From Yuukianura sp. NJ FZ-2021 (lineage: Eukaryota): a stretch of 64,000 nt of DNA. The notes under the pieces were generated by a model. That model was not told the DNA's origin. It searched no databases and worked only from the letters and a program-made list of their open reading frames with translations. Shown here in pieces: positions 19,956 through 44,169 of this stretch. Every line of letters begins with the position of its first letter. The stretch's first letter is position 1. The DNA is taken from assembly GCA_046563655.1 (NCBI GenBank), contig CM102286.1:10354001-10418000 (forward strand), in the 5' to 3' direction. The translations under genes and the position numbers were made by a program.

Positions 19956-21630
19956 CCGAGTTTGTTCCATCAGTTGCCGTTTAGTATGAGCGGAACTAAA
20001 CGTACTTGGTTGAAATTCATAACTGGCCTAAATTTTTTGAAGGTAGTCGCTTAAATGATAAACTTTTATAGAACCTAATCTTTCATAACAATGATATCAA
20101 AAATGTCTATTGCTGAATTTCCAAAAACTGCTAGAATCATACAATATTAGCAATCAATAGTAATTCCAACCATAGGTAATGGTAATTTATTCATAATCCT
20201 GTAGGAATTTTTATTAAGCTTTATTTTTGTTCTTACATGCTTATTACTAACCTAACCTAATAAAGCGTTGTGTATTTCCGGCCAAACCGAAAACGGATTA
20301 ATCACCCTCAAATCATGAGGAATTCATCTGTGAAGACAGACTGGAAATAGGTACAGTTGTAGTGGTTCCGGAGGTATAGACGGTTGCATGAGCGACGCCA
20401 TTTTGCAAAATGTGACGTTTATAACTCCAAAACCGTAGGTCAAGGTCATCTACACAAAAGTTGCTTGTCACAACAGAGTAAAAAAACTCTGTAATTTTTT
20501 TCACTTCCGTTAAAAACATACGTGACCTTGGCTTTTGATCGGGAAGAGGTCGGCAAACAGATTAATCACCCCCGCACCGTGTGGAGTTTGTGGTTGAAAA
20601 CAGATTGAAAATCGATCCATTGGGTTCCAGAGTTATGGTGATCAGCAGACGTACAGAGAGACTGACTCGGGGAAAAACATAAAGTGTCCTCATGCTTTTG
20701 CTACTTGTTAGTGATGTAACCCTTTTTCAAAACACCTAACTTTCTTATTTTGTTCATTTGCAATTGACGTAGTGAAGCTGGGTTTTCCGCCTCCGATTAT
20801 AATTAATCTGCTACGTAACCTCCTTGGGAACAAAACGAAAAAGCTCACTTGTTCAAAAAAAATGTTCATTTCCAATTAATATAACTATTGTAGTTAATGT
20901 AACAACTTAGAACTTTTTCAACCTAACAGTTCTTGTCAATGGAAGTTGTGGTGGGAAATTTTTAAAACCGTCATGGTAAAATAGTTAAACTCAATTTTAC
21001 ATTGCTACCTAATTAATTATACCTTAAATAAATAGTAAGCAACGTGAGAAATTTGCAAATTTGAGTAGATTCCGAAAATTCTACATGATTTTTAATTAGA
21101 ATTGTTTGGGTTTGACGTCAATACAGGCACGTGCTGCAGTTATCAGTATAAACGATATTATCTCAGCCTTGTTCTAATTAAGTTTTTCAGCTATAAATAC
21201 GATCCAAACTTTGCTTCAACGGAAAAGTACTTCAAAACGTCAGTTACGATTTAAACAAACTTTAACCTGTACCTATCCAAAACGTCTAATAAAACTTTGA
21301 ATTAGTTTCAATTAATTAGAAAAGGATTCATATTTTTGAATCGTCACAACAATGAGGGGTAAATTATTGTTACATTTTGAATTCCGCCACACTGAACCAT
21401 ATTTATAACATTAGTTTGGTATTACTTTAATGTTTCTTCATTTAAACTCTTTTTAGGTGTTGGAGCCGAGTGTTGGGTGACTTTGTCGGGAAGCGATGAA
21501 GAAGCTTGGGCAGCATTGGTCCTTGCCAGATCCATTCGAAATTCGATGACAACTAGATCATTAACAATTGCCATTTCTGAAGATGTTTCGAAAGAAATGA
21601 AGTAAGGTCTTTGTTTTAGTCACATAAAAC

Positions 21631-22371
21631 CAGGGTGTCGTTGGTTTAAACCACGGTTTAAACCACTTGGTTTTTTTAAAAAAAAACCATTGGTTTAAAC
21701 CAAATCAAGAATTTCATGCAAAATGATAAAGAAAATTCAAAATAGTTTCACAGGAGCTTTGTTTTTCTCATTTTCTGTCAAAATATTTTTAGTTTTGCTT
21801 GAAAAAACGAAACCTCCTGCTGTTGCCAGTGTATTTTCAGAATTAGACCGCCTTAACGCGCATTTAAAGTTATTCTTCTATCTTACTGTTCAATACGCCA
21901 CTTCGTTGTAAGGCTAAAATTGTTCGTAGTTTTGAGTTAATTGAACAATGAGTAGCGGTAGGGAACGCGAAATCGTTTGGTTGAGCTTCCAGGAAGTAAT
22001 TTCCCGTGACCAAAAGGGCTTTTTAGCAGTCTTTACGAAGTACAGAGCACAAGCGGGACCATTCCAAAAAGTTTTGTTTTCTGACACTTTTTGACGACAT
22101 GATATATCTGCTTCTGATTGTTGGAACAAATTTATATTGTTTTAGTTTAGTTTAATTTGATTCGAAAGGGTACCTAATGTAAATATACCAGATATCCTTG
22201 GCACCCATTTTAGTTTACTTCTAGACCATACTTACTCGCGCATCGCGCATGAATTTACAAGCTTTGGTTTAAACCAAAAAAAAAACCAAAAAAACCTTGT
22301 TTAAACAAAAAAACCGTTTTTTTTTTGTTTGTTTTTTTTTTTCAAAAAAACTGAAAAAATCCGATACCCTG
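21631..22371. mobile_element. hAT-type MITE in intron 2 of PKS copy 1
   Basis: TIR CAGGGTGTCG / CGATACCCTG; 8-bp TSD CATAAAAC / CATAAAAA; GGTTTAAACC subterminal palindromes; absent at the homologous site of copy 2 (~50625). Confidence 0.8.
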
Positions 22372-22757: not shown

Positions 22758-24745
22758 TTCCAGAATGTTATTACACCGAGAATTTGATGCTGTGCTGCGG
22801 TATGAGTCCACAGAGGTTGGAAACAAGGAGCATGGGATGCTTTGGCTCTGGAACCTACGGACGTGGAAGAAATGTGTTTATGTTGACCCCAAATCCTACG
22901 TAAGAAATTGTTAATTGTTGATTTGGAATTAAATATTTTATGTTTTTTTTTTTCAAAAAGTTCAATTTAAGGTTAAACCATAGTCTTATCCACTTTTACT
23001 AATATGAGCTTCATTTTCTCCCCGCAGATGCAAACAAATTCCGATGAACTGTTTCTGTATCCTTCATTCTCGTCGACAGTCGAAGATGCTACTGACGGTT
23101 GTATTAAATTTTCATTGCGCATCGCAGTTTTTAAGCCGAATCTTCAGGAATTTGATCAACTTGTTGAACTAAGCCAGCAGCTACAAGGTACGTTAATCAA
23201 ATGAAAATAAACGTCTTTTATTTTTAAAAATTTGCATTTTAGGAACCATAACGGACATTTTCAACGCAAAGTTTTCCTCTGAAGTGTTGAATCCAAAACA
23301 TCAACTGCCGCCATCAGCTATAGTAAATCTTTGTGAACTCCAGGGCGGAAACTTGTAGGACTTAAAAATTAAAAAGCTCGTACTTTCGCAATGCATAAAA
23401 CTTTCAAATTTTTCAGGAAAACGATAATGAATAGTAAAATTGTCAATTGGAATCGGTTTGAATTCGAAAATATATCTATCAATGAAACGCCTCATCAAAC
23501 TTCCGTCTCTACAGTGGAGAGTAACAACTCTGTTTTTGCACATTCACCTTACACAACGTGCGCCTGCGAACAAGTTCGGGAAAGCTGGATGACAACTTTT
23601 GAAACGGAAGTAATACCACAAGTTCTCCAACTGAACGTAAGATTGCTTCCAAATGTAATTTTTGCTTTTAAAAAAATGACAAAGTTGACCAAGTCTTTTT
23701 TTCTTGCTTTGTTTAGGATGACAATACGAAAAGATATCTATTGCAGTCTATAAAAAATAACTTTCCAAAAACTTCAGCCAGATCTATCCCTACAGCATCG
23801 TTTTATAAACAACAACATCAGGAAAATTTGGCCGGTGCGATTGCTGTAGTAGGCATAAGTTGTAGATTTCCTGGCGCAAACGATCCCGAAGAATTTTGGG
23901 ATTTGTTAGTAAGTGGAAGAAATCCCATTGGTCCGTACCCAGCTAACAGACCACGCCCTCTGAACGATGAAGCGGGAAACTTTAAGGCGGGCTTTTTGGA
24001 TTGCCCGGTAGATGAATTCGATACTAATTTCTTTGGAATCAGTCCTCGCGAGGCTCCGTTCTTGGATCCTCAGCAACGAATTCTTCTGGAAGTAGTTTGG
24101 GAGAGTCTGGAAAATGCTGCTGTTAATCCACAACACTTGCGTGGCACTAACTCAGGCGTGTTCGTAGGAATTTGGCGTCAAGATTATAACACTTTGTTTC
24201 CAAGACATGGGCTGGATTCAGTTGACTACAATCAAGTTTACATGGGAAATGCATTCAGTGCAACAGCTTCTCGAATTTCGCATTTTCTTGGACTTTATGG
24301 GTCAAATATTTCTGTCGAGTAAGACTATTGTCAATCATATTACTTAAATTGAATGTCAAACTAAAAGAACATTATGTTTAGGAGTGGTTGCTCAAGTAGC
24401 GCAAGTGCTCTGCATCTTGCATGTCAAAGCCTTCGTAACGGCGAAACAAACTTGGCAATTGTAGCGGGGGTGAATTTAATATTTGATGGCTTATGTCCCC
24501 TCGGTGGAGGAAGACTGCAAGATTCGTCTGTGTTTGCAAAGGATTTCAAATGCAAGACTTTCGATGAAAGGTATTAAATTGCAATTGCTAAAATTTTCGA
24601 TTCTTTGGTCATGTTATTGTATGTTAAATTTTCAGTGCTGACGGTTATGTTCGAGCAGAAGGTTGTGCAGCAGTTATACTGCGACGGTTGGAAGACTCAG
24701 TTCGAGAGAATGACAACATCGTCGGAGTTATACGTGGAACTTCAT

Positions 24746-25228
24746 TGAGGGGAAGTCGGATGACTTTCCCGACGACTGGCTCAAAGGCCACTCGACAGCA
24801 ATAAATGGTGGGACGGTGGGACACACGGCTACAAGGATCAATTAGTTTATTTGAATAAAGTAAAGATACGTTTACGTATGAATAGCCGATGAATTTGTAG
24901 TGGAAGTGTCGAGAGGTCCTGGCACGATCAACCAGGTATCTTCTTGGTCTGTCCAGGGTCCAGGAGAGATGAATTGAGGTCAAGTCCGGGTCAATCGAGG
25001 CAGTAGCGTGTCCAGACACGAAGAAGGAAAATGGCTGCTACTGGGAACTGGAGTGACGAGCAGATGGGATCCTCTCTGTGTGAGTTGTTGTGGACGACTG
25101 TGTCCAGAGAAGATGGAGGAGGAAGAAGAAGATGATGATGCAACTGCCAGAAGAAGCGGAGGAGTACAGGAGCGGAGGAGTACGGGGAACCACGAAGGCT
25201 AGAGGGGTTTTGGGGATACCTCCCCACA
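24746..25228 (-). repeat. 3' LTR
   Basis: TGAGGGGAAG...CCTCCCCACA; no mismatch found by eye against 35083-35565. Confidence 0.95.
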
Positions 25229-25294
25229 GATTCCCAGCGATCAAGGGAGCCGCCACGGCGACAAACCGAGGAACTCCGAAGCGATTCGGGGAAG

Positions 25295-26506
25295 CTACTG
25301 AGATGGTGGAGGGGGATCCTTGGGATGATTCTTCTTAGGTGGTGGGGGACAATTGGCCGAGTTCTCTGCCCACCATCTAGCACGTCGCTGTTGGCGATTT
25401 GGGGCTTGGGGCAAACGTCCTTGTGCAGGAGCTGGGGGAAAACGTCCTTGTGCAGGAGCTGGGGGTACCGGAGCAGCGTTTGAAGGTTCCTGGGGGGTAT
25501 TCCACGTAACGGTGACTGACGTTGCGCTGGCTGGAACGTAGGCGTGAATGGGGATCAGTCCAGGGGGAACATTCGTTGCCTGGAACGTGGAGCTGGAAGC
25601 TGCTGCTGAGATGGGGATGGTGAAGGAACCGGAAGTGGCTTGGGGAACTGATGAGGAGGCTTGGGGAGCTGCTTGAGCTTGGGGAACTGGTTGAGCTGAG
25701 GAAGTAGAAGAACCAGAGGCAGAATTTTGGCGGGAATTTGAAGAATGTGGCCGAATTGATGAAGATGGAGCCGAATTTTGAGCCAATGGAGGACGAGTAG
25801 AGTACGGAGCGGGACGATTTGGGCGAGTGAGAATCCGAATAGGTGCAGCCGATCGTGATGAAGTGCTCGGTCCAGGGTTTTGGGGGGTTTGAGAGTTCAG
25901 AGTGACTTTTGCCATGTCACGAACCAAGACGGAGGGGGAACTGGAACGGGAATGACCAGCTACGGGGGGTTTTGGAGGTCCATCGGGGAACTTCAAATCC
26001 ATAAGCGGGACGACCTTGGCTGCAGCAGACTTCTGGACTTGCGAATTGGATTTCGGCGCAGGAGCAGAGGGACGACGAAACATTCCAGATTGCTGAGACG
26101 AGTTGGGGACAACGACGACGACCGAAGCTAACTTTGGACGAGGTGCTGGGGCCGAAACCATCTCCTGGAGGCTCTTTTGAGGGGAACGGGGGTTGAAACT
26201 GCCAGAGCTTTGGGGGGACTGACGATCCGGCTTCTTCGGGGATTTTGGAGGAGAATCAGCAGCGAGTGGCATGTCCCAATCATCCGGAATCGGATCCACA
26301 CGACGAGGAGTAATGGGCGCAGCGATGACAGTCGTAGGGGGCGAAGATGACGAAGATGAAGACGACGATGAAGAGCCAGGAGAAGCAGTATCACGCGGAG
26401 GCGGAGAATTCAGGAGTTCGTCTTCTGCAGCCAAATCAATTTCCGCAATTCCCTCAGAAGCGTCATCTTCTCCTTGTTCCATCAGATCCTCCGGTGGTTG
26501 GTCCAT
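25295..26506 (-). CDS. Retroelement ORF3: Pro/Ser-rich low-complexity protein (~403 aa), probably from a spliced subgenomic RNA
   Basis: Lies between pol and the 3' LTR; strong acceptor TTTTTTTATGATTTTCAG|G immediately before the ATG at 26506; no signal peptide or TM segment. Confidence 0.7.
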   Translation of the reverse strand: MDQPPEDLMEQGEDDASEGIAEIDLAAEDELLNSPPPRDTASPGSSSSSSSSSSSPPTTVIAAPITPRRVDPIPDDWDMPLAADSPPKSPKKPDRQSPQSSGSFNPRSPQKSLQEMVSAPAPRPKLASVVVVVPNSSQQSGMFRRPSAPAPKSNSQVQKSAAAKVVPLMDLKFPDGPPKPPVAGHSRSSSPSVLVRDMAKVTLNSQTPQNPGPSTSSRSAAPIRILTRPNRPAPYSTRPPLAQNSAPSSSIRPHSSNSRQNSASGSSTSSAQPVPQAQAAPQASSSVPQATSGSFTIPISAAASSSTFQATNVPPGLIPIHAYVPASATSVTVTWNTPQEPSNAAPVPPAPAQGRFPPAPAQGRLPQAPNRQQRRARWWAENSANCPPPPKKNHPKDPPPPSQ

Positions 26507-26555
26507 CCTGAAAATCATAAAAAAACACAGTATGAGTATTAAATAAAACACTCAG

Positions 26556-29500
26556 TCAGCGCTTTTTAGGTTTAGTAAGGCGGGAAATCAGTGACAGAGC
26601 TTTCGTACGCGCCGCACGCATGGGTTGAGCAGAAATCGCGGGATTTACGCTGGCAGGGGCGCAAATTACGGGGTTTTCGCTCGCAACAGGGAGCAGGGAA
26701 TCCTGTGCGGGTAAAACTGGTGGAACTGGGATTTCTGGGGCGGGGCTTTCAGGGGGAGCATTTTCGACAACATTTTGGGGGTCAAAATTTAGGATCATCT
26801 CGGGAAGCGTAAAAGGGACAATTTCGGGAATTTCTATGGGCAAGTTCGGAATTTCAAGGGGAATTGGATCGGGGGTAATTTCTGGAGCCTGTAACGACTG
26901 AGGGGGTTCAGAATCATCGTCAGACGACTCACGGGAACTACTGTCAAAATCGGAAACATCGTAAAGACGCTGGTGGTAAGGTTTTAATCGTTGTACGTTA
27001 ACGACTGTCTCGTGAGGTTTTCGAGGTGGGATCGAAGAGACACGAACAGTTCCATTGGCAAGGACGTCAATGACCTTGTAAGGGCCAATCCATTTCTTGG
27101 TGAATTTTCCAACGTGACCTTTTTTCCTCTGAAAGTTCCGGAGTAGAACTTTCATACCAGCAACGTAGGTGGGGAATCGGATCTGCATTTGAGCTTTTAC
27201 TCGTAAGAGCTGTTGCTCACGAGACAACTCATGGGCTACGTTGTTGGCGACGAATAATCTGTCAAAAGAATCATTAGGGGTCAAATAATCTTGGGGAAGG
27301 GGAAACAACTTATCTACCGGCAAAACCGGCTCCCGACCAAAGACAAGAAAATATGGGGAGAAGTTTGTTACCCGATGTACAGAACAATTGACGGAGAAAA
27401 CTGCTTTGGGAAGATGGAGATCCCAATCCTTATGATTTTCACTTACAAATTTTGCGATGACAGATTTTACCGTTCCGTTATGTCTTTCGCAGACACCGTT
27501 TGACTTGGGATTATAGGCAGTCGTAGAACGGTGGTCAATAGAATGGAGGGCAAGGAAATCCTCAAACTCTTCGGACTGGAAAACCGTGCCACGGTCTGAG
27601 AGAATCATCTTGGGAATACCATGACGATACAGGACATGTTTGGTAAGGACTTTGATCGCTTGAGCAGAATCTGCTGAGGGAACGGGCCAAGCTTCAACGT
27701 AGCGGGTATGGAGGTCAACTATGGTTAGGATATAGGTATTTCTCCTCGCTGTGATGGGAAATGGGCCAATGTAATCCACAGCAAGTGCGTTGAAGGGAAT
27801 GGCGGGAACGTCAAGGCCAACGCTATTAGGGGGAAGAGCGAAGTTCCGTCTATTATGTACTTGACACAAGTGGCAAGAGGTGACAAATTTGACTAAGTCA
27901 CGGTACATCCGGGGCCAGTAAAACCGGGAACGAAGGAGATGCCAGGATTTGTGTAGACCAAGGTGACTAAGGGAATCGTTGTGGACGGATTCCATCGAGG
28001 ATTTCCTAAGGGACTTGGGAAGACAAAGACGCCAAAGGTTACCAAATTCAGAGTAGTTCATTTTGTACAAAACTCCATCACGCAGACTAAATTCGCTCAA
28101 CTTTTTCGGTTCCGCTAAGGAGTGGGGTTTACCTAGCTGCTCTGCTTTCAAGTACTCAATTATGGGTAGCCATTCTGGCTCTTTAAGTTGGAGATCCTTC
28201 AACTTTGACTCACGAACTTTCCGGGGAGCTTCAGGGGAAACCGCTAAGGCCAGAAGATGATGTGTAATGGCCAAATGGTCTGTGTCAGAAGGGGCGGGGT
28301 CAACGGGGTTTCGGGATAGCGGGTCCGCATCCGTGTGGATACGGCCACTTTTATGGACAACCGTAAAGTCGTAGGGCTGGAGGGCTAAGGACCAACGGGA
28401 AATTTGGCCATAAGGGTCTTTGAATTTTAGCATGTCACAGAGGGAATGGTGATCAGTGACAACTTTAAAATGACGCCCGTATAAATACGGACGAAATTTC
28501 TCGACAGCCCAAACAAACGCTTTCATTTCCAATTGGGGGGTTCCAAACTTCGACTCGGAGGGGGAAAGAGCTCGCGAAGCAAAAGCTACAACTCTCTCTA
28601 CACCATCTTGAATTTGACAAAGCGTTGCTCCAAAACCAAGTCCAGACGCATCACAATGGACGGACGTCTCTGCTTCTTCGTCGGGAAACGCTAGGACTGG
28701 GGGAGAAGTCAACTTGTCTTTTAACGTTTGGAACGCTACCTCGGCTTCAGGGGTCCAGAAAAATGGGGTACCACGCTTTGTAGCGATGAGAAGATGGAGG
28801 GGACGGGCAATCTCCGCGAAACCTTTAATAAACCGTCTGTAGTAACTGCAAAGACCAACAAAGGAACGGACATTTTTAACAGTCGTGGGGGTAGGGAAAT
28901 CACGAACTGCTTGGGTTTTCTGGGGATCAACTGCAATTCCTTCACGGGAGACAATGTGACCAAGGAATTTCAAAGAATCTTCGGCAAAGTAACACTTTTT
29001 GGGTTTTAAACTGAGACCAGCTTTACGGAGAGCACAGAAAATCTGCGCTAAGTGGTCTAAGTGCTCTTCAAAGGAACGGGAGTAACAAACAACATCGTCT
29101 AAGTAAACGAGCGCTATGGACCATTTTAAACGACCAAGGACATTGTCAATAAGACGCTGCCAAGTCGCTGGGGCATTGGTTAATCCAAAGGGCATGACGA
29201 CGAATTCGTACTGTCCGTCGGGGGTAACGAAGCTTGTTTTCTCTCTGTCCTCTGGTTCCACCTCGACTTGGTAATACGCCTGGTCACAATCCATGGAGGA
29301 AAAGTACTTGGCACCATTTAAACGATCCAGGGTGTCGTCGATTCGGGGAAGGGGATAGGAATCCTTTCTTGTCACTGCGTTGACTTTGCGAAAGTCAACG
29401 CAAAACCGCCAACTTTCGTCGGGCTTTTTGACAAGAAGGACTGGGGAACACCAAGGGCTATCGCTGGGGGTAATCGCCTTAAGATCCAAAAGACGCTCGA

Positions 29501-31587
29501 CTTGATTTTGGATTTCTCTCCGCTCCGTGAAACCGGTTCTATGGGGATTGGATGCTATCGGTTTCGCAGTTCCTGTGTCAATTTTGTGGGTCGTTAAATG
29601 AGTACGGCCAAGAGTTGATGGATCGAAATTAAAAACATCCAAATTTGATACAAGAAAATCCTGCATCTTTTGGCGCTGTTCAGGGGTTAGGGTTTTGGAG
29701 ATCTTAAACGCCTCAATCCTCTTTTGCAGTTTCAGAGACGCGATGTCATTATCATCATCAACTGCAAGTCCGAGGATTTCGTGCGCTGGGAGAGAGGAAT
29801 GGGACAATTTGGAGCTCACATGACCGAATTCGTCTAAGTCACAGAGCACTGAGGACTCTGCGAAGGGTTCGAAGGTGCCTATGGAGATATTTTGCAGAAG
29901 TTTTACTGGTCGGTCTCCTAAATTCCACAGGAAAGTAACTCCTGCGCCATCCTTGAGGGTGGAAATAAAATTTCCAATGGCGATATGTTTTGCATACTGG
30001 AGTTCCTGACGAGGGGAAACAAGAACATCCCCGGTGAAAGGGAGATCTGTCTTGACGCTTACGCGTTTCATAGTTCTTGGGTTGATGATAATGGACCTGA
30101 CCAGTCGTAGGCACGGAGGGGGCGAAGATTTTTGTGACAAATTCGAATTACTGACGAAGGAAACTTCAGAGTCAAGTAACGAAGGGGATTTAGGGGAATC
30201 AGACGAATTCTGGGTCATGTCATGAACTAGTTTAGGGGGATTGGCCGTACAAGGGGGATTTGACACAGGTTCCGGATCCGACGCGATGGGAGAGCTCGGG
30301 GTATCTGAAACTTGTTCAGTTTCAGACAATGTTAATTTGTTTAGAACAGGGACTTGGGATTTAGGTACACAGACATACTCATTTCTGAGGTCTGTGCAGG
30401 GGAGTTCACCTTTTACAAGGCGCTCGTTAGCGGGATCCAAGAGAAAACGTTCTGAACGGAGAAAGTCAGAACCCAAAACGATTTCATTTGAAAGGTGCTG
30501 GAAAATATAGAATGGGTATTGGAAGGGGACACCATCAATGGAGAAAGAGATCATTGTAGTTTGGGGGGGAATTACAACGAACGTACGAACCAAAGGACAG
30601 TTTCACACGAACGGGTTCCACATCAACCGCTTGGGACACAATATGGGGGAATTTCCGTAGAAAATCGGGGTGGACACAACAAAGGGAAGCACCTGTGTCA
30701 CACAGGACTCGGAGTGTTTGGGTACCGAAGACTACATCAGTGTGGAACGTAGAATGTTGGGTAGAATGGATTTGGGACATGAATTTAGCCACAGAAATTC
30801 CCATAGGAAATTCGGACTCGGGGACTGGGGAATTGAATAGGGACCCATGTTCAAGGTTTGAATCTGGGGTACTGGAATTTGCAGCTAGGATCTCTGGGGA
30901 ACTATTAACCCAGTCAGCAGTTCTGCCTTGGATCGAGGGGGGATTTCCAAATTTTGAAGTGAGCGAAACAGCTTTAGGATCTGGAGCAAAACGACAAATT
31001 TCGTCTTTGGGATCTGTTTTCGGATCATAGGGCCAATGAGCAGAGGTACCAACACAAACAGAAGCAGCTTTTGGAGCGGGAACGGAACTTTGAGCAAATA
31101 TTTTCGGATCAGTAGCGTCAGTTTTCGGATCTGGAACATAAATAGGAGCAAGATTAGAACTAGGATCAATTTTAGGAGCCGACTTAGGAGCAAAATTAAT
31201 TTTAGGATCAGTTATCGGAGCAAAATTAGGATCAGAATTAGGAACTATTGGAGCGTCAGAACAGGGAATAGGTAACTTGGTTGTAAGGTTCCCAGCGATC
31301 AAAGTTGAAGTAGGGCTGGGGGTACAACATTGGGAACATTTCTGCTTTTGGACAAAAAGAGCTTCAAGTTTGTTAAAGAACTCTTCTATGGAAAATGGAC
31401 TTTGAAATTGGGGCTTCCTGCCAAAAGCCTTGCAATTTCTGTGGGTTTGGAAAGTAGGGGACTTGAATTTTCGAATTTTGGAACGTTTGGGACAAGCTCT
31501 TATAGGAGCTGGGACCAAATTTTTAGGGACTGAAATTGGGGTGGGTAGAGGCTGTCGTCCCTGCAACGGCAGCTCTACTGGTTTTCC
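26556..31587 (-). CDS. pol: Gypsy pol polyprotein (linker-protease-RT-RNase H-integrase), with a 1-nt frameshift at the G7 run 30563-30569
   Basis: Protease LCDTGAS and IVLGSDFL; RT RFCVDFRKVN, MPFGLTNAP, YLDD; RNase H CDASG, TDHHSL; integrase HHCC (H..SHLG..CHLC) and DDE core (AVDYIGP, SDRG, CERHN). Confidence 0.93.
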
Positions 31588-32896
31588 GGAGGCGGTGTTT
31601 GTTTAGGAAGGACGGCTGCAGCGATGTTCTGGAGAAGATCCGTCATTGTTCCAAAGGCAGTCATCATCGTCTTGGTCCAATCAGCATCCGGACGAGGAAC
31701 ATTTTGAGACTGTGCTGGAGGGTTTGGACTGGTTTGCAATGGGCGAGTGTCAATATTTGGGTAGGGACGTTGAACAGCCTGGCTATAATAGCCTTGCTGC
31801 TGGGGGATACAGGCTGAGGGGAATGGTCTGCTGGGAGTGCACGCTGAGGGCCATTGTAACCCGGGAGCCGCCAAGTAGGGGTGTGACAGTGTTTTCTAAT
31901 GTGCCCACTTCGGTTACAGCGATTGCATATCGGTCGTCCTTCTGCATCCCGACGATTCACGAAACTGGTTGGTTGTGAAGCCGTTTGACCAGCAGCTTGA
32001 GGGGTAGCAGGAACATTGGGCTGTTGTTGGATCTGGGGAGGGGACGACTGAGGGAACTGCATTGGGGGGTTAGGGGCAGCTGCCATTTCAAAAGCCTGCA
32101 TAGAGACTACAGGGGAAGAGCCATCTTTGGGACGGGTATGGACTTCTGCAACTCGTCGTAGAATTTTCTGAAAGTCGGAGGGGGTTTGGATATTGAGCAT
32201 TACAAAACCTTTTTCAAGGTCTGCTGGGAGTCCACGAATGAGATATTCAACCTTTCGGCTGTCACTCATCTTGGGATCCAAACGAGACAAAATAACAATT
32301 TTGTCCGCTACGTATTTGTCAATACAGTCACCCAATTTGTAACGTAGGGACTTATTCTGGGCTCTGAAATCATCTCTACGCTCTTTAAGGGAAAAATGGG
32401 AAATGAACTGAGTTCCAAATTCAGTCCAGACAGCCTCAGGATCTTTAGTGGGATCTTCCAGTTGTTCTCGAAAGTGGGGCCAAATTGAGATGAACCAAGA
32501 GCTAGCGACTCCAGTCAAAACTCTGTCGAAGTGGCTCAATGCTCCATAAGATCCGAATCCAGTTCCTCTCAGATCGTATTCGTAGCGTGCAAGGAATTCT
32601 GCAGGGTCACTCGTTCCATCGTACTTCCGGATATGCTTGAAAATTTTAATGTCCTGGGTACAAGGGAAGGGGGCATTGGGAGCCATATTGGCTTGTGTAC
32701 CATCGCTGTACACAGAACCAGGAGTAGCTGGTTGCTGCGGATTGTTAGGAACTGGAGGGGGCATAGCAAAAGTAGGATGGTAGTTTTGTTGTGCTGGTTG
32801 CATGGGGATTGTGGACTGGGATGGGGAAGGGCCTTGTTGTTGCGGTTGACCTTGTACTGGAGGGGAAGACCTGGGTCTCGCAAAATATGTCAACAT
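31575..32896 (-). CDS. gag: Gypsy gag, with an apparent 1-nt frameshift at the G5 run near 31802-31806
   Basis: Capsid-like region (KYDGTSDPAEFLARYE, YLIRGLP); zinc knuckle CNRCNRSGHIRKHC; the C-terminal Q/P-rich frame (31575-31874) ends ENQ-stop over a GGAAAAC slippery-type site. Confidence 0.85.
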
Positions 32897-32907
32897 TTGG
32901 GAACTCC

Positions 32908-33321
32908 TTAGTATCTTCGTTCTTGCAGACGGGGATTCTCGTATTCAAAGACAAGCCAGCCTTGGGTACTTGCGTAGTATTTGAAACACCAGCGGTAAAT
33001 GGGACTGAAGAAGCTCCAATGATAGTACAAGAGTCTAACCAAAAGAGCTAGACAGTAGTAGGTTTCAGTTCCGACAAGGACTCCAAGTAGTTCTGCGTAA
33101 GCTCGAGGATTTCGTCTTAGGTAGAGTACAGGGGCAACGTGTAGGGCCAAAAAATCAACAAAGACGGAAAAAGTCGATGCTACACAGGACTGGGTAATTT
33201 CAGCAACCAGTAGGGAGAATAGGTACAGGACTTCGGATAGGAACAGGATTAAACAGCTTGCAAAAAATAAAGCTGTTCCAGCAATTAGAATAGTTCGGAT
33301 TAGGGGCCAAGCGATCCACAT
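32908..33321 (-). CDS. Hydrophobic 137-aa ORF upstream of gag (putative multi-pass membrane protein)
   Basis: ATG-initiated; several long hydrophobic stretches; ends 11 nt before the gag ATG. Confidence 0.45.
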   Translation of the reverse strand: MWIAWPLIRTILIAGTALFFASCLILFLSEVLYLFSLLVAEITQSCVASTFSVFVDFLALHVAPVLYLRRNPRAYAELLGVLVGTETYYCLALLVRLLYYHWSFFSPIYRWCFKYYASTQGWLVFEYENPRLQERRY

Positions 33322-33368
33322 TTGCAGTGGGTTTCACTTAAACCACAACCACTTTTCAGCGTTTGGGC

Positions 33369-33485
33369 TTATTGTAGGAAGTTGAGCAAAATAGAAATCA
33401 AAAAGAATAGTGTAAGGTACTGGACAACAACTGCAATAACTGCTATGAGTATGATCAGAACGATGGCAATGAAGGGGTGGGACAT
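33369..33485 (-). CDS. 38-aa hydrophobic small ORF in the retroelement leader
   Basis: Manual translation MSHPFIAIVLIILIAVIAVVVQYLTLFFLISILLNFLQ-stop; below the ORF-track cutoff. Confidence 0.35.
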   Translation of the reverse strand: MSHPFIAIVLIILIAVIAVVVQYLTLFFLISILLNFLQ

Positions 33486-35082
33486 CTCTCGGGTCAGTTC
33501 AGGGACTTTCTACAATACTTAAGAAAAGAATTAATAAACCAAAAACTATTAAGAATTGCAAATAATTTAAACTTACACCTAAAAAAAAGAAATATGGAAT
33601 TCAAAATTTATGGGAGGGTTCTTTAGAAGCTGCTGTCTAGGGCTATGGATTCAAAACGAAACCAAAATCCACCAAACAGAACTTAAAATCGAAGAAAGAA
33701 TAGAACAATAAACAAAAAGATAACGAGCTGAAGTGACGGAGCAGCCAAGCCAAACCAAATTACAAAACCGTAGAGCCACAAAGTTAATTCAAAAATTGTC
33801 ATTTCTGAATTATTTTGAACCACATTGGAAGGAATAGGGTATAGGGTACTTGGGTAACTTCAGTTGCGTTGAATGCGATTGAAATTCGCAAGGGCGGGAA
33901 AATCTGCGAAGTCCGAGGTTTAGGTAGACCTCACATTAACATACTATTTCTAGTAGCTGTAGGAAAGTTCAAAGTTTTTCAACTTTTCAGAAATTTGGGC
34001 AGGGGTTTGGGGTAGCAAAACAACTTCTGAATTTGAAAGGTGGACAAAAATCTTTAATTCTAATTAATCAGGACGAAAACGCAACGTATTTTGAATTTAG
34101 GGAACGATTAGAGCCGGTTTCTGAAAAATCCGACTAGTCAGGGGAAAAGTGAAGCCTGCGTACGGTTGTAGTTGCGGGGTAATTGGAAATCGGAAAAATC
34201 TGCCGACTCTGGGGAATAGTCACTTACGCAACAAAATTTGCAAAAGCGCGAAAATTTCAAACTGTTTTAGATTTCAAAAAAAATTTGACAGGGGGGTGTT
34301 AGGGGGTTCAACTTTTTTAATTTAGGACGTTTTCAAAAAAATTTTCAAACCAAATTTTCAAAAATTTTCAATTTAAGGGACAGGGGGCAATAACTTTTTG
34401 AAAAGGGGGGCCAAAAGCTATGGGGATAAGGGACTACGTTGTAGGGGAGCTGCTTTTAGGTAGCTGGGGCGCTGCGCTATTTTTAAAAAAACTTTGAATT
34501 TCGAAAAAAACGCTTATTTTGAAAAAAAACGCTAAGTTTTTGAAAATTTAAAAAATTTTGACAGGGGGACGGGGTATTTTTACCAAAAGTTGCTGGGGAG
34601 GGACACGTTTGCTCAAAAAAAACAAAAAAACAAAACGCGCAAAGAAAAACGAAAGAACGCTGACCTTGTGTGACCTTGTCACAGGCAGACGAAGGACGAA
34701 GAAGATGACGTGGTCCGAGGTGACGTGGCCAAGTGATGTGTAGCGTGGAGAGGGTGTGGAGCGTGGAATTCGGCTCTACGGCTGCTTTGGCTGGTGATGT
34801 GGCGTGGATGGAGCGTGGGTGGAGTGGCTTTGGCTCTGGCTACGGCGTGGCTTCTGCTCCAAACTCGCTTTCTCTAGAAAAAACTGAAAAAAATCGAAAC
34901 AAAATTAGAAAATAACGAAAAAAACGATGAAAAAAAAAAATGAAAAAAATGAAAAAAATTAGGTAGGGGTCACGGGTGGGACTTGGGTGGAGCCGGTTGG
35001 CTCCAATTGGTATGATTCCGCTTCGGCTGTGTAGAGGTCAAGGTGAGGTCACGGGCTTCGGTTCCCGGCTGTAGCGCCCACT

Positions 35083-35565
35083 TGAGGGGAAGTCGGATGA
35101 CTTTCCCGACGACTGGCTCAAAGGCCACTCGACAGCAATAAATGGTGGGACGGTGGGACACACGGCTACAAGGATCAATTAGTTTATTTGAATAAAGTAA
35201 AGATACGTTTACGTATGAATAGCCGATGAATTTGTAGTGGAAGTGTCGAGAGGTCCTGGCACGATCAACCAGGTATCTTCTTGGTCTGTCCAGGGTCCAG
35301 GAGAGATGAATTGAGGTCAAGTCCGGGTCAATCGAGGCAGTAGCGTGTCCAGACACGAAGAAGGAAAATGGCTGCTACTGGGAACTGGAGTGACGAGCAG
35401 ATGGGATCCTCTCTGTGTGAGTTGTTGTGGACGACTGTGTCCAGAGAAGATGGAGGAGGAAGAAGAAGATGATGATGCAACTGCCAGAAGAAGCGGAGGA
35501 GTACAGGAGCGGAGGAGTACGGGGAACCACGAAGGCTAGAGGGGTTTTGGGGATACCTCCCCACA
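35083..35565 (-). repeat. 5' LTR, followed on the minus strand by a PBS-like sequence (AG-TGGGCGCTACAGCCGGGAAC)
   Basis: Direct repeat of 24746-25228; TGG begins 2 nt inside the LTR boundary. The priming tRNA was not identified. Confidence 0.93.
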
Positions 35566-38500
35566 TCATTAAATAACAACGCCGCGGAACAAACATTTGG
35601 AAGTCCAAATTCAACAGCACTTGAAAGAGTATTTCGAGAAGCACTGGAAGATGCTGGAGTTAACCCTGCCAGGGTTAGCTTAGTTGAAACTCATGGGACA
35701 GGAACAAAAGTTGGAGGTAAGCATTACTACTTTCAAATTTGTATTGTTTGCATTCAAATTTTGATCAAAGGCAATATTAAATTTGGCATTATACCTTTCT
35801 ACTTGTTGTTGACTTTAAGATCCAGTAGAAATGACTGCAGTGGAACACGTTTATTCTCGAGGAAGATCAACTGATGACCCACTTCTGGTGACTTCTGTAA
35901 AAACAAATATAGGGCACTCTGAAGCCTGTGCTGGTTTGGCGGGATTAATCAAAGTCCTCCTCTGCTTCAAACACAACCGAGTCCCACCGAATCTTCATTT
36001 TCAAAAATTGAACCCCAACATAAATATTCACAAAATTCCGGCGATCATTCCTGTGGAAGCCACTGAATGGAAAAATGAAAACCGATTTGCTGCGGTTTGT
36101 TCATATGGCATGAGTGGAACCAACGTCCATATAATCCTTCAAGAGCCACCGACAAAGAAGAAACTGATGAAAATTGCCGAAGAAAAACCTGCAGCAATTG
36201 AGATAGAAATGATTTGCATTTCTGCAAAAACAAGGGAGGCATTGGAAAATATGTGTCAGAAATACATATCACGTTTTGAACAAAATCCGAAACTAGCTTT
36301 GAGCGACATCGCATTTACTCTGAATACTGGAAGAGCAAACTTTCCTCATCGGATTGCAGTTGTTGCCAAAGACATGGAGCAACTCATCACAAAGCTGAAG
36401 CAAAAGAATTATGTCACAGGAAAAACTTCTCTACAAGAACAGAAAGTTATATTTTTGTTCACAGGTCAAGGGTCACAGTACTTTGGAATGGCCAAAACCC
36501 TGTACGAAGCCAACTTAATCTTTCGCAAAGCCCTTCAGCGATGTGAAACGCTGTTCCAGAAGTACTTGGCATGCTCACTGAAGGAAGTTCTGTGGGGAAA
36601 TCCTGCTTTATTGGACAAAACAATTTACTGCCAGCCTGCAATTTTCGCAGTTCAATTTTCTCTGGTCCAGTTATGGCATTCGTTTGGAATTTATCCTGAC
36701 ACTGTCTCAGGCCACAGTGTTGGTGAATTCTGCGCAGCTGTTTGCGCAGGCGTATTAACACTGGAAGATGGAATGAAACTGGTCGCCAGCAGAAGTAAGC
36801 TCGTAGATTCTCTTGAAGAAGGAAAAATGTTGGTCGTAAAAACTTCGCTTGAAAGTGCTCGGAGTTTGATTGAAAAATTCAGCCAATCTATTCCCAATGC
36901 TTTTATTGATATTGCCGCCGATAATTCTGGCGAAGAAGTCGTAGTTTCGGGAACAGTCACAAACGTAAAGGAATTTGCAATCTATTGTGAACGGCGAGGA
37001 CTTAAAGTCCAATTTATTGCCGCATCTCATGCATTCCACTCCCGTCTAATGGACATGGTTTTGGCAGAATACGGATTGGTTGCAGCGAGCGTGAAACCAC
37101 AAAAACCGAAGTGTCGTTACATTTCTGGTACACTAGCGCGTGAGTTGAAGCAAGATGATTTTAGTTCCAGTTATTGGTTGCATCACTTTCGAGATACTGT
37201 CAGGTTTCGTGACGCCGTTAAACTTATCGAAAATATCTTCGCCAACGACAAAAGAGTTTTTGTAGAAATTGGAACCCAACCAATTTTGTTGAGCCTGACT
37301 ATGGCAAATCAGCCCAATCCTACGGACGACGTGTTTTGCCCTTCACTACGCAGGACTGAACACGACATGTCTTCTATTTTAAATTCTTTATCAAAGATGT
37401 ATGTGACTGGAGTTGACATTTCATGGAAAAATTGGTTCCTTCAAGCAAACAAATTGAATCTCCCGACGTATCCATTTCAGCGTCGAAAGTTTTGGTTTGA
37501 ATGGACAAACGTTGATGCTGAAATCGAACATTCATTTTCACTACATCCAATTCTTGGACGTCGGCTACCGACAGCAGGAGTAGAAGCTGTGTTTAGTCAA
37601 ACCTTGACTAACAAGGCTATACCATACATCACAGATCACCGTGTTGCAGAGCGCATAATTTTTCCTGCGGCAGCATACTTGGAAACCATAATGGCCGCTG
37701 GGTGGCACGTTATACAACGCGGAGAAGGCGAACTCCAGTTTTCTGTACAAAATTTCAGAGTAGAGGTTCCACTGGAACTGAACAAGTCATGCCGCATTCA
37801 AACAATCGTTCGGCCAATAGGAGATAATGATTTCAGATACGAAGTTTCAATTCACAAGCAATCTCCTCATGATCCGCAAAATTGGAAGCGACATGCATAT
37901 GCGACGCTTATTCCGAATCATGCGGCTTCTTTCGTCACTTGCGTTGACATAAATGCGATGCAACAAGAGATGGAGTTGGTAGACTCGATGAACAAGATTT
38001 ATTATGAATTAGCTAAGGTCGGGTACCAATTTGGGCCTAAGTTCAGGTCAATTTCTCGAGTTTGGATTGGAAAGGATAGACTTCTGGCGGAAATTGAAAT
38101 GCCAGAAAAACATGACAGTTACATACGTCACCCAATTATTCTGGATACGATGATACAAACAGTCATCGTCAAACAAGTAGCGATACATAAAGAAAACGCT
38201 ATTCTGAAACTTCAATTACCAATTGGAATCAAACAGTTCACGTGGAATTCGAAAACATTTTCTCCAAAGGTTTTCGCATACTTGGAAAATTTTCAAGAGT
38301 CGAGTACAGTAACCTTGATGAATGATGTTGGAAAAAACATGGCGGTAATGGAAGGGGTGGAATTCATTGAGACATCGTTGTCAAGATTCCTGCATATGTT
38401 AAATCCACAAGCAGATTCGCCGCCGACATTTTTACAAGAAGTATGGCGAGCAAGGGATGGAATCACGCGGAACCGAATTGACACTCAAATATTTCAATTG

Positions 38501-41500
38501 GACTCATTTCATTTTGTAAATTCTACCTTGGAATCTATTGCCGAAATGGAAGACAACTTGACGAGTAGTGTCGAGATTATTGACAAATTATTTGTCCTGT
38601 TTCTTCTAAAGGGAATTTCAGAATCTGCATGGCCCTGGCCAAATATTGGAGAAAACATTATTAGCAGCGATTGGGCGAAATTGGCACCAGGACTTGAAAT
38701 TGTAAAATCGGGAAAACTTATGGACATCCTTGCACAGTTTTCCTATTTGAGAAAAAATAGAGACGCAACTTATCAAGTTTTGCAAATACTCCCGAATTTG
38801 GAAGAAATAGAAAAGCAAGTTTTGAATGAATTGGAGCAATACAAAAAATTATCAAGAAGCAAAGAAAGTGTGATATTGGAATTTGCAAAACGGTGTGGTT
38901 TCCATCTTCCAAATCTCTTGCAACAAAGAATGACGCCAGTTTCATACATGTTCCCAGATGATCCGAAAGAAGTTGGTGCTTTAAGTCTACATTCAGAAGG
39001 TGAGAACTTGTTTACGAATTGCATGTACTATATTCCTATTGTGTTTCTTAATCTCCAGAGGAAAATCTTTAACCATTTTTTTTTTCGAAATTTAAAATTT
39101 TAGGAGAAGGGCTTAAGGAAATTGTTTCGGTGGCAACGTCTTTGCTTCTGGATTGCACATACAATTCAGCAGAGCGAAACGGAGTTTTGAGGGTTCTTGA
39201 AGTTGGCGCTGGTTCGGGAATCAGTTGCAGTGTGATTCTAGAAGCCTTCGCAAAGCTCAAAGTTCCTTTCAAATACAGTTTCACTGATATTTCACCACAC
39301 TTCCTAAACAAGGCGAAAAAGAAATTCAAAGATGGAGTTACATTTGCTTTGTTCAACATCGAAGACGATCCTCTTAGTCAAGGGTTTGCTCCAGAAGAGT
39401 TCGATGTCATCATTGGGATCAACGTTGTTCATGCAACTGCGGATATTTTGCAAACACTCAAAAACCTAAACATGGTACTTCGAGATGGCGGAATTCTCGT
39501 GCTCGGAGAGATGTTTGTGGATCTCACTTACATAAACTTGTCGTTTGGATTTTTGGACGGTTGGTGGAGGTCAACGGACGGGAGAGCTGGTTCACCACTT
39601 CTCACTCGAGATCAATGGAAGAGCGCTTTTGAACAAAGTGGACTTGTTCAAACAAAAATTTTTTCGTTTTTGAACGAAAGTTTCGGAGCTATAGCAGGAC
39701 AAAAAAGGCGTGAAAAATATCGGATCAATTCTGCGCTAACTGCGCAAACAGACATGGCATGTTGGCTAATTGCTACAGACGGAACCGAATTAGTGTCAAA
39801 ATTGTCACTAATGTTGCGCAGCGTTGGGCGTAGTGTGACACAATACGATTCATCGCAAAGTATTCCACATGGACTGGAGGGAGTGGTGTTCTTCTGGACG
39901 CAGGTTCGCAAAGAAGATGAAAACCAAGAAAGATGCAAACTGCTTCTGAGTTTGGTCCAGAAACTCGATTCTGCATATCAGACTAGCATGGTGAAGCCAA
40001 AACTAATTGTGGTTACACGAGGAGTCAATTATTTGTTCGATGCTAGTCCGGGAAATCCGAATTCTGCTACGGTGACTTCCTTTATTCGATCTTTTGCAAA
40101 CGAAAACAGAGACTTTAAAGTCACCGCAATTGACCTTGATCAGGATGAGGTCAATTTTGAAAGGGAGGCAGAGGAAACATTTGCCATGCTGTGGTCACAA
40201 GAAAACGAAATGTTTAGAGCAGTTCGAGAGGATCAAGTTCTTGTGCAGAGATTGACATTTGCTGACACAGCGAAGGACAAACTTTCATTTCCAAAGTCGA
40301 GTCGAATTCATGTAATTAAACCTGTCACTAACAATTTGAATGACTTGGAAATTTCCGTGGCTTCAAAAGTGACTCCAGTTGAGGATGAAGTTGAAATATC
40401 AGTGAGAGCAACGGGACTAAACTTCAGAGATCTCTTTCTTATTCTTCAACCAGAGGGATTTGTAGATCCAATAACTTACAATCCACAGCCAGGTTTAGAA
40501 GTTGCGGGAATAGTCTCGGCTACTGGACCATCTTGTACGAGATTTAAAATCGGCGACCCCGTTTTTGGAGCTGTACTAGGAAATGGACTGGCTTCACACG
40601 TCACAGTTTCCTCTCAATATTTGATTCGAAAACCCGACAATATGACATTTACATCTGCTGCAACTATTCCTGTTGCATTCCTCACATCTTTCTATGGACT
40701 GCTGGAACTGACAAAATTGAGGTCAAAAGAGCGAGTTCTCATTCACGTTGCCACTGGAGGAGTCGGGCTCGCAGCGATTCAAATTGCCAAGCATATTGGC
40801 GCTGAAATATTTGCAACAGCAGGCAGCAAACGGAAGCGAGCATACCTTAGATCCATTGGAATCCAACATGTCTATCACTCCAGAACCACGGACTTTGGTG
40901 ATGAAATTTTGAACGACACCAATGGCGCAGGAGTTGACGTTGTGCTGAACTCACTCACAGGTTGCGGTTTTAAAGAAGCGTCTCTTAAAGCTTGTGCTCA
41001 AAATGCTCGATTCATAGAAATTGGAAAAGTGAATATTTGGAGCAAAGAAGAAGTGCAAGCGTTACGTTCTGATGTAAAATATTTTATTCTGATTCTACCT
41101 TTGGGAGTTAAAAAAGAACAGCAAACAATATCAGAGATTATGGCTACAATCGAAACAGAATTGGGAAACGGGTTATACACTGCACTTCCCAATCAATCGT
41201 TTTCGCTGGATCGAGTTGGTGAAGCATTTTCATTTTTTCAAGGAGCAAAACACATCGGTAAGCTTGTTGTTACGATTCCGGAAACGAAGATTTCTCCAGA
41301 TAATGAAATTATCTTTGAACAACGAATTTTCCATCCGCAAAGTACATACCTCATTACGGGAGGGTTGGGTGGAATCGGCTTGGAAGTTGCTAAGTGGATG
41401 AGTAGATTAGGAGCCACCAACCTTGTTCTCGTTGGACGCAGTAAACCATCAAAATATGCCAACGAAGTGCTGTCGCTACTGAACAAAGAAGGATGCCGAA

Positions 41501-44169
41501 CAGTAGCACTTCAAGCAAATGTCGGGATTTATGAACACGTTGTGTCTCTACTTAAATACCTAAAAACTTCGAATTTTCCACCACTTCGGGGAATTATGCA
41601 TGCAGCAGGAGTACTATCTGATGGAGCAGTGGCGAATCAGTGTTGGAAAAATTTCGAAGAAGTGTTTCAACCAAAAGTTAATGGAACTTGGAACTTGCAC
41701 AATTTAACCCTCGGTTACGACTTGGAATTCTTCGTCCTGTTTTCCAGTGTAGCGTCAAATTTTGGAACACAAGGGCAGAGTAACCATTCAGCCGCAAATC
41801 GATTTTTGGACTCATTTGCACAGTACCGTCATTCTTTAGGTCTTCCTGCTTCTAGCGTTAATTTTGGCGCATGGGCTGAGGTAAGTACTTCTTAAATTGC
41901 ATGTTACTCAAATGGAAAAATATTGCAATATTTTATAAGTTTTTGATCTCAAACTTTTCCTAGGTTGGACTAGCAGTGGAGGGCGACATTCTTCGGAGTG
42001 AATTGCTTGGTATTCGCAGTTTTTCTCCAGAGCAAGGTTTGGCAGCTCTGCAAGATGTGATTCAAGAACACAGAGTCCAGTGTGGCATTTTGAATGTTTC
42101 CGATTGGGCCACAGTTAAAAATGCTTTCAAACTGGGAAACTACTTGGATGAAATTAGGTCTGGCAATCCAGTTTCAAAAAGCACAACTAGTGGGGAAATA
42201 TTGATCCAAACGGAAATCGCAGAAGCTATCGATGCAATAGAAAGACGGAAGAAGATTGAAGAATTTGTTCATACAGTTTTAAAAGAGACGATTCGTGTTG
42301 ACGCTGACGAAGAGTTGGACCCAGATAAACATTTTGCGGAGTTTGGAGTGGACTCTCTTATGACAATTGAACTGCGCAATCGTCTTCAAACTATTCTTCC
42401 AAAGAACCAATTACTTCTCAGCTCGATTCAAGCAAATCGTACAATTCGAAAACTTTCGAGTCACTTGGAAAATCTAATGACTTCTCAAGTTCCCGTTTCG
42501 CCACTGGAAGACATTGTTAGGCGTGATTCGGATTTACCGGAAGAAATTCAACCCACCGAAGTTTCACCTTCTAAACCAAGCGAATTCAAAGAAATTCTGG
42601 TAACAGGAGCCACAGGTCACTTGGGGGTCAACTTCATTCCAGCCCTACAAAAAGAAAATCCAAACTTGATCATCCATTGCATTGTGCGTGGAAAAAATTC
42701 AGCGGAAGCTAATGAACGATTAATGGAAACGCTGCGCTTGTATTCTTTGCTTCCTAAAATCAATTTCGAAAAAATCAGAGTTCTTGCGGGCGATTTGTCG
42801 AGAACAAATTTTGATCTTGCCGAGGAAGTTTATGACGATTTGACACGGCGTGTCGACGCAGTAGTGCACTGCGCAGCTAAAGCCAACCATGTAGAAGAGT
42901 ACGATGGACTTGGAGAAGATAGTGTACGCACGGTAAATGTGTTTGGTACCATTAACGTGTTGCGTTTCGCCACAACCGGTAAAACCAAAGCTATTTTGCA
43001 TGCATCTTCGATGATTACAATAACAACTGCTAACGCAGCAAGAATTTGTATGGAAGATTTCCCGGACAAAAACGACAATGGAATGTTTTTAAAAAATGGG
43101 TATGCGCTAAGTAAGTTTGTTTGTGAAAAATTAATGTCACAAGCTTTGGCTCGCGGCATACCGGTAACTGTCATACGCTATGTCAGTGTTTTTGGAGACA
43201 GCAAAACTGGATACATGCGCAATAACAACGATCATGGTTTGGCTATCTTGGCTTCGTGTATTCGTGTTGGCATGTTTCCTCCGTTGTGGAATGGAGGCTA
43301 TCCAATCATGCCCGTTGACGCAGCAGTAAATATTTCCGCCAAAATATTCTTGCGAGATTCATCTGAGACTGGAGTTTACAATTTGACGAGTTCCTCCACC
43401 ATATCGCGAGATGAGGTCAAGGAGGTTTTTGCTAAATTTGGAATACATGGAGAGTTTGTTCCATTTTCTAAATGGGTTGAAACTGTCTTCGCAGAAACTG
43501 ATTCCCGGAAGAACGACCTTTCTCCATTTCTGGAACTGTACCGTCACGATAACAGTCAAAAAAGCTCTGTAGTGAATATACATCCCCTTGGAACTGAATT
43601 GGCTACGCTGCAACTGAATCGTATAAGCGATAAGGTGCTCATCAACTGTCCAGAAGCTGCATCTGAAATAATGCCTACAAAACAATTCTTTGAACTAATT
43701 CTTCACTATTACGTTAATAATCGGAAAGATAGAGCTTAGAGTTACGAAAATGTGGTTTAAGAAAAGTAGATATGCAACCTTTAGTGTCACTTTCTATTAC
43801 GTACATTTTCCGCCAGAGTTTCCCGTCTCTTTCCGAAAAATTCAGTGGAAGCTTCAAACGTAATTTTACTTCTAGAGGTTTGCAGACTCAAATTTTGTCT
43901 CCAACTTGGATCGGTTTCATGTTAAATGGTGCTTGAACGAATTTGCTTAGGAAAATCGATTTCTATCGCATGTAATAACCAATAAATACGAAAGTGTTAC
44001 CCAATACAACTGAAACTTTTATTCAATATGTTGTTGCCGTTCCTCACAAATTGTCACAATAAAAAAAAAGTTTTCTCATGGAATTTCTGTAATTAGCACG
44101 TCTATAAACTGTATATAAGTGTTATAATAAACTTCTTGTAAAGACGATGTAAATAAATACCGTCAGGTC

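Follow-up and report, generated by a model that had tools for sequence, protein, structure and literature searches.

Glycogenin-derived exons apparently fused to a tandemly duplicated highly reducing polyketide synthase gene in Yuukianura sp.

What is a set of small, glycogenin-like exons doing immediately ahead of a polyketide synthase (PKS) gene? The question is raised by a 64,000-nucleotide stretch of DNA from Yuukianura sp. NJ FZ-2021 (assembly GCA_046563655.1, contig CM102286.1, positions 10,354,001 to 10,418,000 of the forward strand), referred to here as the window. A sequence-only reading of this DNA had proposed a GT8 glycosyltransferase fused in frame to a polyketide synthase, giving a GT8-KS-AT-DH-cMT-ER-KR-ACP-R megasynthase. 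The explanation preferred here, to which we give a probability of about 0.6, is that the window carries one gene in two tandem copies, in which glycogenin-derived exons are fused to a highly reducing PKS and encode a pseudoenzyme module. The first six small exons would derive from a host glycogenin (GT8) gene and would be joined in frame, by splicing, to a highly reducing type I PKS of bacterial type. The glycogenin-PKS architecture is real, conserved and apparently undescribed.

Upstream exons, synthase body and a second lineage

The splice sites read in the DNA of copy 1 define six upstream exons with GT-AG boundaries and compatible phases, each with an AG acceptor behind a pyrimidine run and a GT donor. 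Their 780 nucleotides translate into exactly 260 amino acids and join the ketosynthase (KS) exon, which begins at 23717, in phase 0. The set recurs in copy 2 between 50356 and 52126, as six intact GT-AG exons whose product is identical to that of copy 1 at 222 of 260 residues. In both copies the exons thus lie where the sequence-only reading had placed them. The duplicated unit covers the N-terminal exons as well as the PKS (20496-44123 matches 49063-61883 in a BLASTN self-comparison), and no third copy was found by tblastn within the window. The introns differ in size: intron 2 measures 1162 nucleotides in copy 1 and 151 in copy 2, and about 0.75 kb of the former (21630-22372) is absent from copy 2. 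This segment has A/T runs and repeated GGTTTAAACC-like motifs near both its ends, suggestive of a small inserted element.

The synthase that follows has the domain order KS-AT-DH-cMT-ER-KR-ACP-R in copy 1, as assigned by Pfam (PF00109, PF02801, PF00698, PF21089/PF14765, PF08242, PF08240/PF00107, PF08659, PF00550 and PF07993). The synthase itself is unremarkable among highly reducing type I PKSs with reductive release. Its body is intron-poor, with three large exons of approximately 1070, 930 and 590 codons. Among the matches listed for the KS exon, the nearest named proteins belong to bacterial type I PKSs (42-51% identity). An intron-poor PKS gene may well have captured the promoter and 5′ exons of a glycogenin paralogue, an idea suggested by the intron-rich N-terminus, the intron-poor body and the bacterial affinity of the nearest named synthases.

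The same arrangement is found in a second lineage. Among the matches listed for the large PKS exon, the best was P0126 (45% identity over 96% coverage), which comes from a metagenome contig, L001. P0126 carries KS, AT, DH, MT, ER and KR by Pfam and is followed on the contig by an ACP exon. A tblastn search with the spliced window protein gave colinear matches in L001 at 678-827, 887-1072, 1117-1263 and 1617-1718 (sum E 7e-23), which directly precede its KS exon (1791-2405), itself 58% identical to the KS exon of the window. Upstream of KS the contig has seven GT-AG exons (604-610, 691-826, 889-1024, 1117-1270, 1345-1450, 1518-1602 and 1665-1727) that splice into an intact open reading frame (ORF) of 229 amino acids. 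In L001 and the window alike, the shared exons end in phases 1, 2, 0, 1 and 2, followed by 0 at the KS junction, and L001 has one additional intron within the last upstream exon. The in-frame placement of the upstream domain on KS, first proposed from the window, thus recurs in another lineage, with introns at identical positions and in identical phases. The fusion would be old, as a relative whose PKS is approximately 45-58% identical shares the exons, the intron positions, the phases and the KS junction.

Conservation is unevenly spread over the upstream domain. Window and L001 are identical at 49/93 positions over residues 1-96, at 17/49 over residues 97-150 and at 14/86 over residues 151-260, where the window has an additional low-complexity stretch. 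Within exon 3, 21/45 columns are invariant among copy 1, copy 2 and L001. The terminal domain of the synthase appears to differ among relatives. L001 appears to end after ACP, no reductase domain being present within 3.4 kb downstream (ACP region 9167-9793 and beyond), and L003, a separate contig of the same collection, has both ACP and reductase. A related PKS fragment extending from DH to KR is found on L004 (1-6861); a tblastn search of the 6.8 kb upstream shows no KS, AT or glycogenin-like exons.

Glycogenin ancestry and the catalytic positions

The evidence for ancestry comes mainly from searches of all chain sequences in the PDB (177,635), with matches considered at E ≤ 10. Exon 2 of copy 1 alone had 19 matches, every one to glycogenin-1 or -2 at residues 4-46 (E 0.1). 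A three-sequence profile of this exon, built from copy 1, copy 2 and L001, again matched glycogenin in 19/19 cases, now over residues 3-47 and with a best E of 4.9e-5. Exon 4 of L001 aligned without gaps to 47 residues of glycogenin-1 (108-154) in its top 17 of 18 matches, each of them weak (E 0.65-1.3), and the profile of the window exon 4 had 11 weak matches, of which 6 were to GT8 proteins or glycogenin at colinear positions. Support for this central segment lies in the confinement of the matches to one family and in their colinear position, not in single E values. Two exons independently match the same small family in the right order and at the right spacing, which establishes descent from glycogenin over roughly residues 3-154. 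Of the colinearity with glycogenin that had been proposed for the whole domain, roughly this part is borne out, and the last third is poorly conserved.

Intron positions point in the same direction. The first two coding exons of L001 end at coding nucleotides 7 and 143, and exon 2 aligns to full-length glycogenin-1 (chain 7zbn_E) without offset. Position c.7 of human GYG1 is presumably the last base of exon 1. GYG1 c.7G>C is listed with a frameshift consequence (PMC7046021). Exon 2 ends at c.143, and c.143+3G>C is given as a splice-donor variant in which exon 2 is skipped (PMC13737462, PMC5735306). A literature search for further GYG1 exon boundaries (c.481+3276 and others) found nothing. The N-terminal exons thus seem to share intron positions with the vertebrate glycogenin gene, which points to a host glycogenin gene as their source.

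Searches of other collections gave the following picture. In an atlas search exon 2 pointed weakly to a cluster (score 0.89) in which 21% of the members carry PF01501, and exon 3 produced nothing usable. The exon 2 alignment had no match at E ≤ 10 among word-indexed proteins of 84-2000 amino acids, a range below the approximately 3200 amino acids of a full-length fusion. PF01501 was present on 0/120 listed matches of the KS exon among word-indexed proteins of up to 2000 amino acids, and likewise on 0/120 listed matches of the 1094-residue PKS exon, a list crowded with bacterial multi-module PKSs. Exon 6, the least conserved and uninformative on relatives, had two matches among 1.84 billion representatives, both of them repeat proteins with no relation to GT8 or PKS. 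Viral contigs scanned with a short glycogenin motif yielded 52 loci, none of them glycogenin-like in context.

The residues on which glycogenin activity depends are a separate matter. The DxD metal-binding motif, which we take to be Asp102-x-Asp104, was located by an ungapped back-count from residue 1 of L001 exon 4, which corresponds to glycogenin residue 107, exon 3 ending in phase 0. Opposite Asp102-Ala103-Asp104, L001 has D-P-T and the two window copies have D-P-K. Local alignment to a bacterial GT8 hidden Markov model (HMM) puts the motif at the same spot, with a score that is not significant. Asn133-Ser134-Gly135, presumably the sugar-nucleotide contacts, pair with Y-P-Q in the alignment of L001 exon 4 to glycogenin-1. 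Asn12 and Tyr15, presumably also of functional importance in glycogenin, are aligned in exon 2 with Ser and Glu. His212, taken to be a ligand, and Tyr195, taken to be the self-glucosylated residue, both belong to the C-terminal half, and exons 5 and 6, which would cover this region, gave no alignment to glycogenin. Asp102 of glycogenin is named in PMC13737462.

With the second Asp of DxD and the NSG contacts replaced, the glycosyltransferase character would have been lost, and the upstream domain is probably a pseudo-glycosyltransferase rather than an active GT8. The catalytic losses shared by both lineages, together with a first stretch of approximately 100 residues that is about as conserved as KS, argue for a pseudoenzyme kept for a structural role, and against both a relic in decay and a working transferase. 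Such a module would provide the gene with its start codon and the protein with a folded domain at the N-terminus. The PKS domains and the glycogenin descent of the proposed megasynthase are therefore retained, whereas its working GT8 is not.

Constraint, junction and the state of the two copies

Comparison of copy 1 with copy 2 over the N-terminal exons gave 42.5 non-synonymous and 34.5 synonymous differences, corresponding to a ratio of non-synonymous to synonymous substitution rates (dN/dS) of 0.313 by the Nei-Gojobori method. The synonymous excess over the neutral expectation has a binomial P of 4e-6. The corresponding ratios for the PKS are 0.238 in the first KS exon, 0.311 in KS-C/AT/DH, 0.266 in cMT and 0.203 in ER-KR. 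No indels separate the copies in the 780 exon nucleotides, and indels are present in 5 of the 6 introns. From the ratios and the absence of exon indels it follows that the upstream exons share the coding constraint of the synthase. With their recurrence in L001 also considered, the exon series is by all these measures more than chance, and its first 100-150 residues or so are, on the ratios obtained, under purifying selection as strong as that acting on the PKS domains.

This constraint bears directly on the suggestion that the exons are a translated scar, captured only for their promoter, start codon and leader and encoding a functionless, slowly decaying peptide. A scar would be in keeping with the loss of catalytic positions in both lineages, with the divergence and low-complexity stretch of residues 151-260 and with the different number of exons in the C-terminal part of L001. 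It is hard to reconcile with a dN/dS of 0.26 over residues 1-187, which is the level of the PKS domains, with an identity to L001 over residues 1-96 that approaches the 58% of the KS exons, and with a frame that is intact in all three genes and free of exon indels between the copies. We regard the scar as unlikely.

A second alternative concerns the junction with KS. The spacer between the last upstream exon and the KS exon measures 80 nucleotides in copy 1, 113 in copy 2 and 63 in L001. A small glycogenin-like gene could stop in this "intron" after exon 6, with the PKS having a start of its own, and read-through past the last donor does meet a stop, after 38, 13 or 11 codons in the three genes. 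However, these read-through tails are not conserved, and neither AATAAA nor ATTAAA occurs in the spacer of any of the three. Nor do the window KS exons offer a usable Met, the first in-frame one being residue 175 (copy 1) or 46 (copy 2), at or beyond the start of the conserved KS core. Donor and acceptor lie at homologous phase-0 codons in all three genes, and protein similarity spans the junction. From the short spacer without a poly(A) signal, the unconserved tails, the Met positions and the similarity across the junction we infer a single ORF and a fused transcript; two adjoining genes are very unlikely. Least probable is an active but unusual glycosyltransferase with altered metal-site residues, which would add sugar to the polyketide or to itself, or anchor the synthase on glycogen: metal-independent GT-A enzymes exist, conservation is highest in the nucleotide-binding half and the Lys at the Asp104 position in the window could in principle replace the metal ion, but that Lys is Thr in L001, NSG has become Y-P-Q there, Ser and Glu occupy the Asn12 and Tyr15 positions, no alignment is possible for the C-terminal half, where the acceptor Tyr and His ligand would lie, and the C-terminal synthase-binding tail of glycogenin is absent, the domain running directly into KS.

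Both window copies carry a lesion. The third KS exon reads through 53269 without a break in copy 2, and the same exon of copy 1 is cut after 24745. The interruption, 24746-35565, had been read as an intron. It is instead a long terminal repeat (LTR) retrotransposon: its LTRs of about 483 bp (24746-25228 and 35083-35565) are 100% identical and have TG..CA ends, it is flanked by a TCAT target-site duplication, and its pol ORF on the minus strand (26556-30602) encodes RVT_1, RNase H and integrase in that order by Pfam. Joining 24745 to 35570 restores the frame, and the large "intron" is therefore a transposon in coding sequence. The insertion is very recent, and copy 1 is most likely disabled by it. 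The element has a GC content of 0.44-0.49 against approximately 0.35 in its surroundings, and its GC skew on the plus strand is strongly positive. Copy 2 has lost one base from a GGG run (GGG to GG) near 57856, which shifts the frame in the cMT-ER linker. This deletion may be recent or an assembly error, because the old frame continues downstream without stops and with a dN/dS of 0.20.

Several of these observations, and some of the searches, weigh against a glycogenin-derived module on a functioning synthase. An uninterrupted PKS frame is absent from both window copies, and production of the protein in this organism from these copies would therefore not be supported. The KS exon of L001 has Met residues ahead of the KS core, so that a separate start would be possible in that gene. 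The DxD assignment is an ungapped extension over an exon junction rather than a scored alignment. Among the upstream exons, exon 3 had no glycogenin match in the PDB in any of three query forms and, searched singly, no match in Pfam, and exons 5 and 6 searched singly had none to glycogenin or GT8. The Glyco_transf_8 family of Pfam (PF01501) matched 0/16 single-exon translations at E ≤ 10, single exons being too short as queries. In hmmsearch with an HMM derived from 30 cyanobacterial GT8 proteins, the scores of the spliced proteins did not exceed those of 900 shuffles. Comparison with the same GT8 alignment by hhalign was colinear over 194 columns and not significant (E 0.26, probability 0.2%). 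A GT-A fold for the spliced 260 amino acids is putative only, and a dimerising role is a matter of pure inference.

For the role of the pseudoenzyme module two suggestions may be made. Because glycogenin is itself a dimer, the domain might cap the KS dimer in a dimerising or scaffolding role, which we advance tentatively and by analogy. More doubtful is the wider picture of an ancient selected chimera in soil or freshwater invertebrates, in which a horizontally acquired bacterial-type PKS would have been turned into a functional animal gene when it took up the promoter and the exons of the catalytic domain from a glycogenin paralogue, the inactive GT-A half-domain then being re-used as an N-terminal module of a new kind. 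In such a chimera the half-domain could be a dimerisation cap or a binder of nucleotide handles that helps to choose the acyl-CoA starter.

The features of both copies are listed in Table 1. The window DNA as a whole is AT-rich, eukaryotic and retroelement-bearing. Between the two PKS copies, 44603-46822 on the minus strand holds an open frame of 739 amino acids with an RVT_1 match (E 1e-28) and is probably a non-LTR element. No Pfam match was obtained for several frames of 250-353 amino acids on the minus strand (9999-10814, 15403-16464 and 16645-17397) or for one on the plus strand (13945-14724).

Table 1. Positions in the window of the upstream exons, the synthase exons and the inserted retrotransposon.
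Feature	Position	Strand	Remarks
Copy 1 exon 1	21352..21358	+	ATG plus 4 nucleotides, 7 coding nucleotides; phase 1 donor GTAAAT; the same 7-nucleotide first coding exon in L001
Copy 1 exon 2	21457..21601	+	Glycogenin-like N-terminal segment, glycogenin residues ~3-47 (PDB searches)
Copy 1 exon 3	22764..22899	+	Ends at degenerate DxD position (D-P-K); from splice sites and phase
Copy 1 exon 4	23028..23187	+	Glycogenin-like, residues ~107-157 (profile search and orthologous exon of L001)
Copy 1 exon 5	23243..23354	+	Poorly conserved
Copy 1 exon 6	23417..23636	+	Poorly conserved except for the last ~20 residues; phase-0 donor
Copy 1 first KS exon	23717..24318	+	PF00109, E 4.5e-41; no in-frame Met ahead of the KS core
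Copy 1 second KS exon	24382..24570	+	Holds the GCSSS stretch
Copy 1 third KS exon, left piece	24636..24745	+	Interrupted by the transposon
Ty3/gypsy-like LTR retrotransposon	24746..35565	-	10,820 bp, in KS coding exon; TCAT target-site duplication
Copy 1 third KS exon, right piece	35570..35716	+	Joined to 24745 restores the frame, as in copy 2
Copy 1 large exon, KS C-terminal part, AT, DH	35820..39024	+	Pfam; 3′ end approximate
Copy 1 large exon, cMT, ER, KR	39101..41880	+	Pfam; 5′ end approximate
Copy 1 last exon, ACP and NAD_binding_4 reductase	41964..43739	+	Pfam; includes stop codon
Copy 2 N-terminal exon set	50356-50362, 50461-50605, 50757-50892, 51505-51664, 51723-51834, 51907-52126	+	GT-AG, intact, 260 amino acids
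Copy 2 PKS body	52240..61458	+	1-nucleotide deletion near 57856

Comparison with known systems

The synthase body resembles the highly reducing type I PKSs with reductive release of bacteria and fungi, with which it shares all eight domains in the same order. Unlike these, the window gene has introns, is extended at its N-terminus by glycogenin-derived sequence and belongs to a eukaryotic genome, with retroelements around it. Accessory domains at the N-terminus of PKSs include SAT, GNAT loading domains and docking or dimerisation elements, and to our knowledge none of these has a GT-A or glycogenin fold. The upstream domain is like them in being placed ahead of KS and in a possible dimer-stabilising or starter-handling role, and unlike them in having no sequence relation to any of them.

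The animal PKSs surveyed in PMC10764717 offer a further likeness, a PKS in what is here a probable invertebrate genome. According to that survey, the AFPKs of molluscs and arthropods are FAS-like and mostly carry a TE domain, and some PKS genes of arthropods may stem from horizontal transfer, a presumed case being found in the springtail Folsomia candida. The words "glycogenin" and "glycosyltransferase" have 0 occurrences in its main text. A search of the full-text literature, with supplements and subscription journals outside its scope and the genome or transcriptome surveys it returned judged by title and the start of the abstract, found no description of a fusion of glycogenin or GT8 with a PKS.

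Glycogenin itself (GYG1/GYG2, CAZy GT8) remains the closest counterpart of the upstream domain. Exon 2 corresponds to its residues 3-47 and exon 4 to residues 108-154, in each case with glycogenin as the only or dominant PDB family, and the ends of the L001 exons at coding nucleotides 7 and 143 agree with the reports on human GYG1. The upstream domain differs from it in reading D-P-K or D-P-T at DxD and, in L001, Y-P-Q at NSG, in a deletion of approximately 14 residues in exon 3, and in a C-terminal half that cannot be aligned and has no free C-terminus, being fused to KS. If the fused protein is made, it would bring to polyketide synthases a domain type not seen on them before, and would clearly illustrate how a biosynthetic gene that is intron-poor and bacterial-looking can be accommodated in a eukaryotic genome, with a housekeeping gene providing the 5′ exons. 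Nature would here also offer an instance of a glycosyltransferase that has become a pseudoenzyme and is still under selection, which raises the question of what role the retained nucleotide-binding half plays in a megasynthase.

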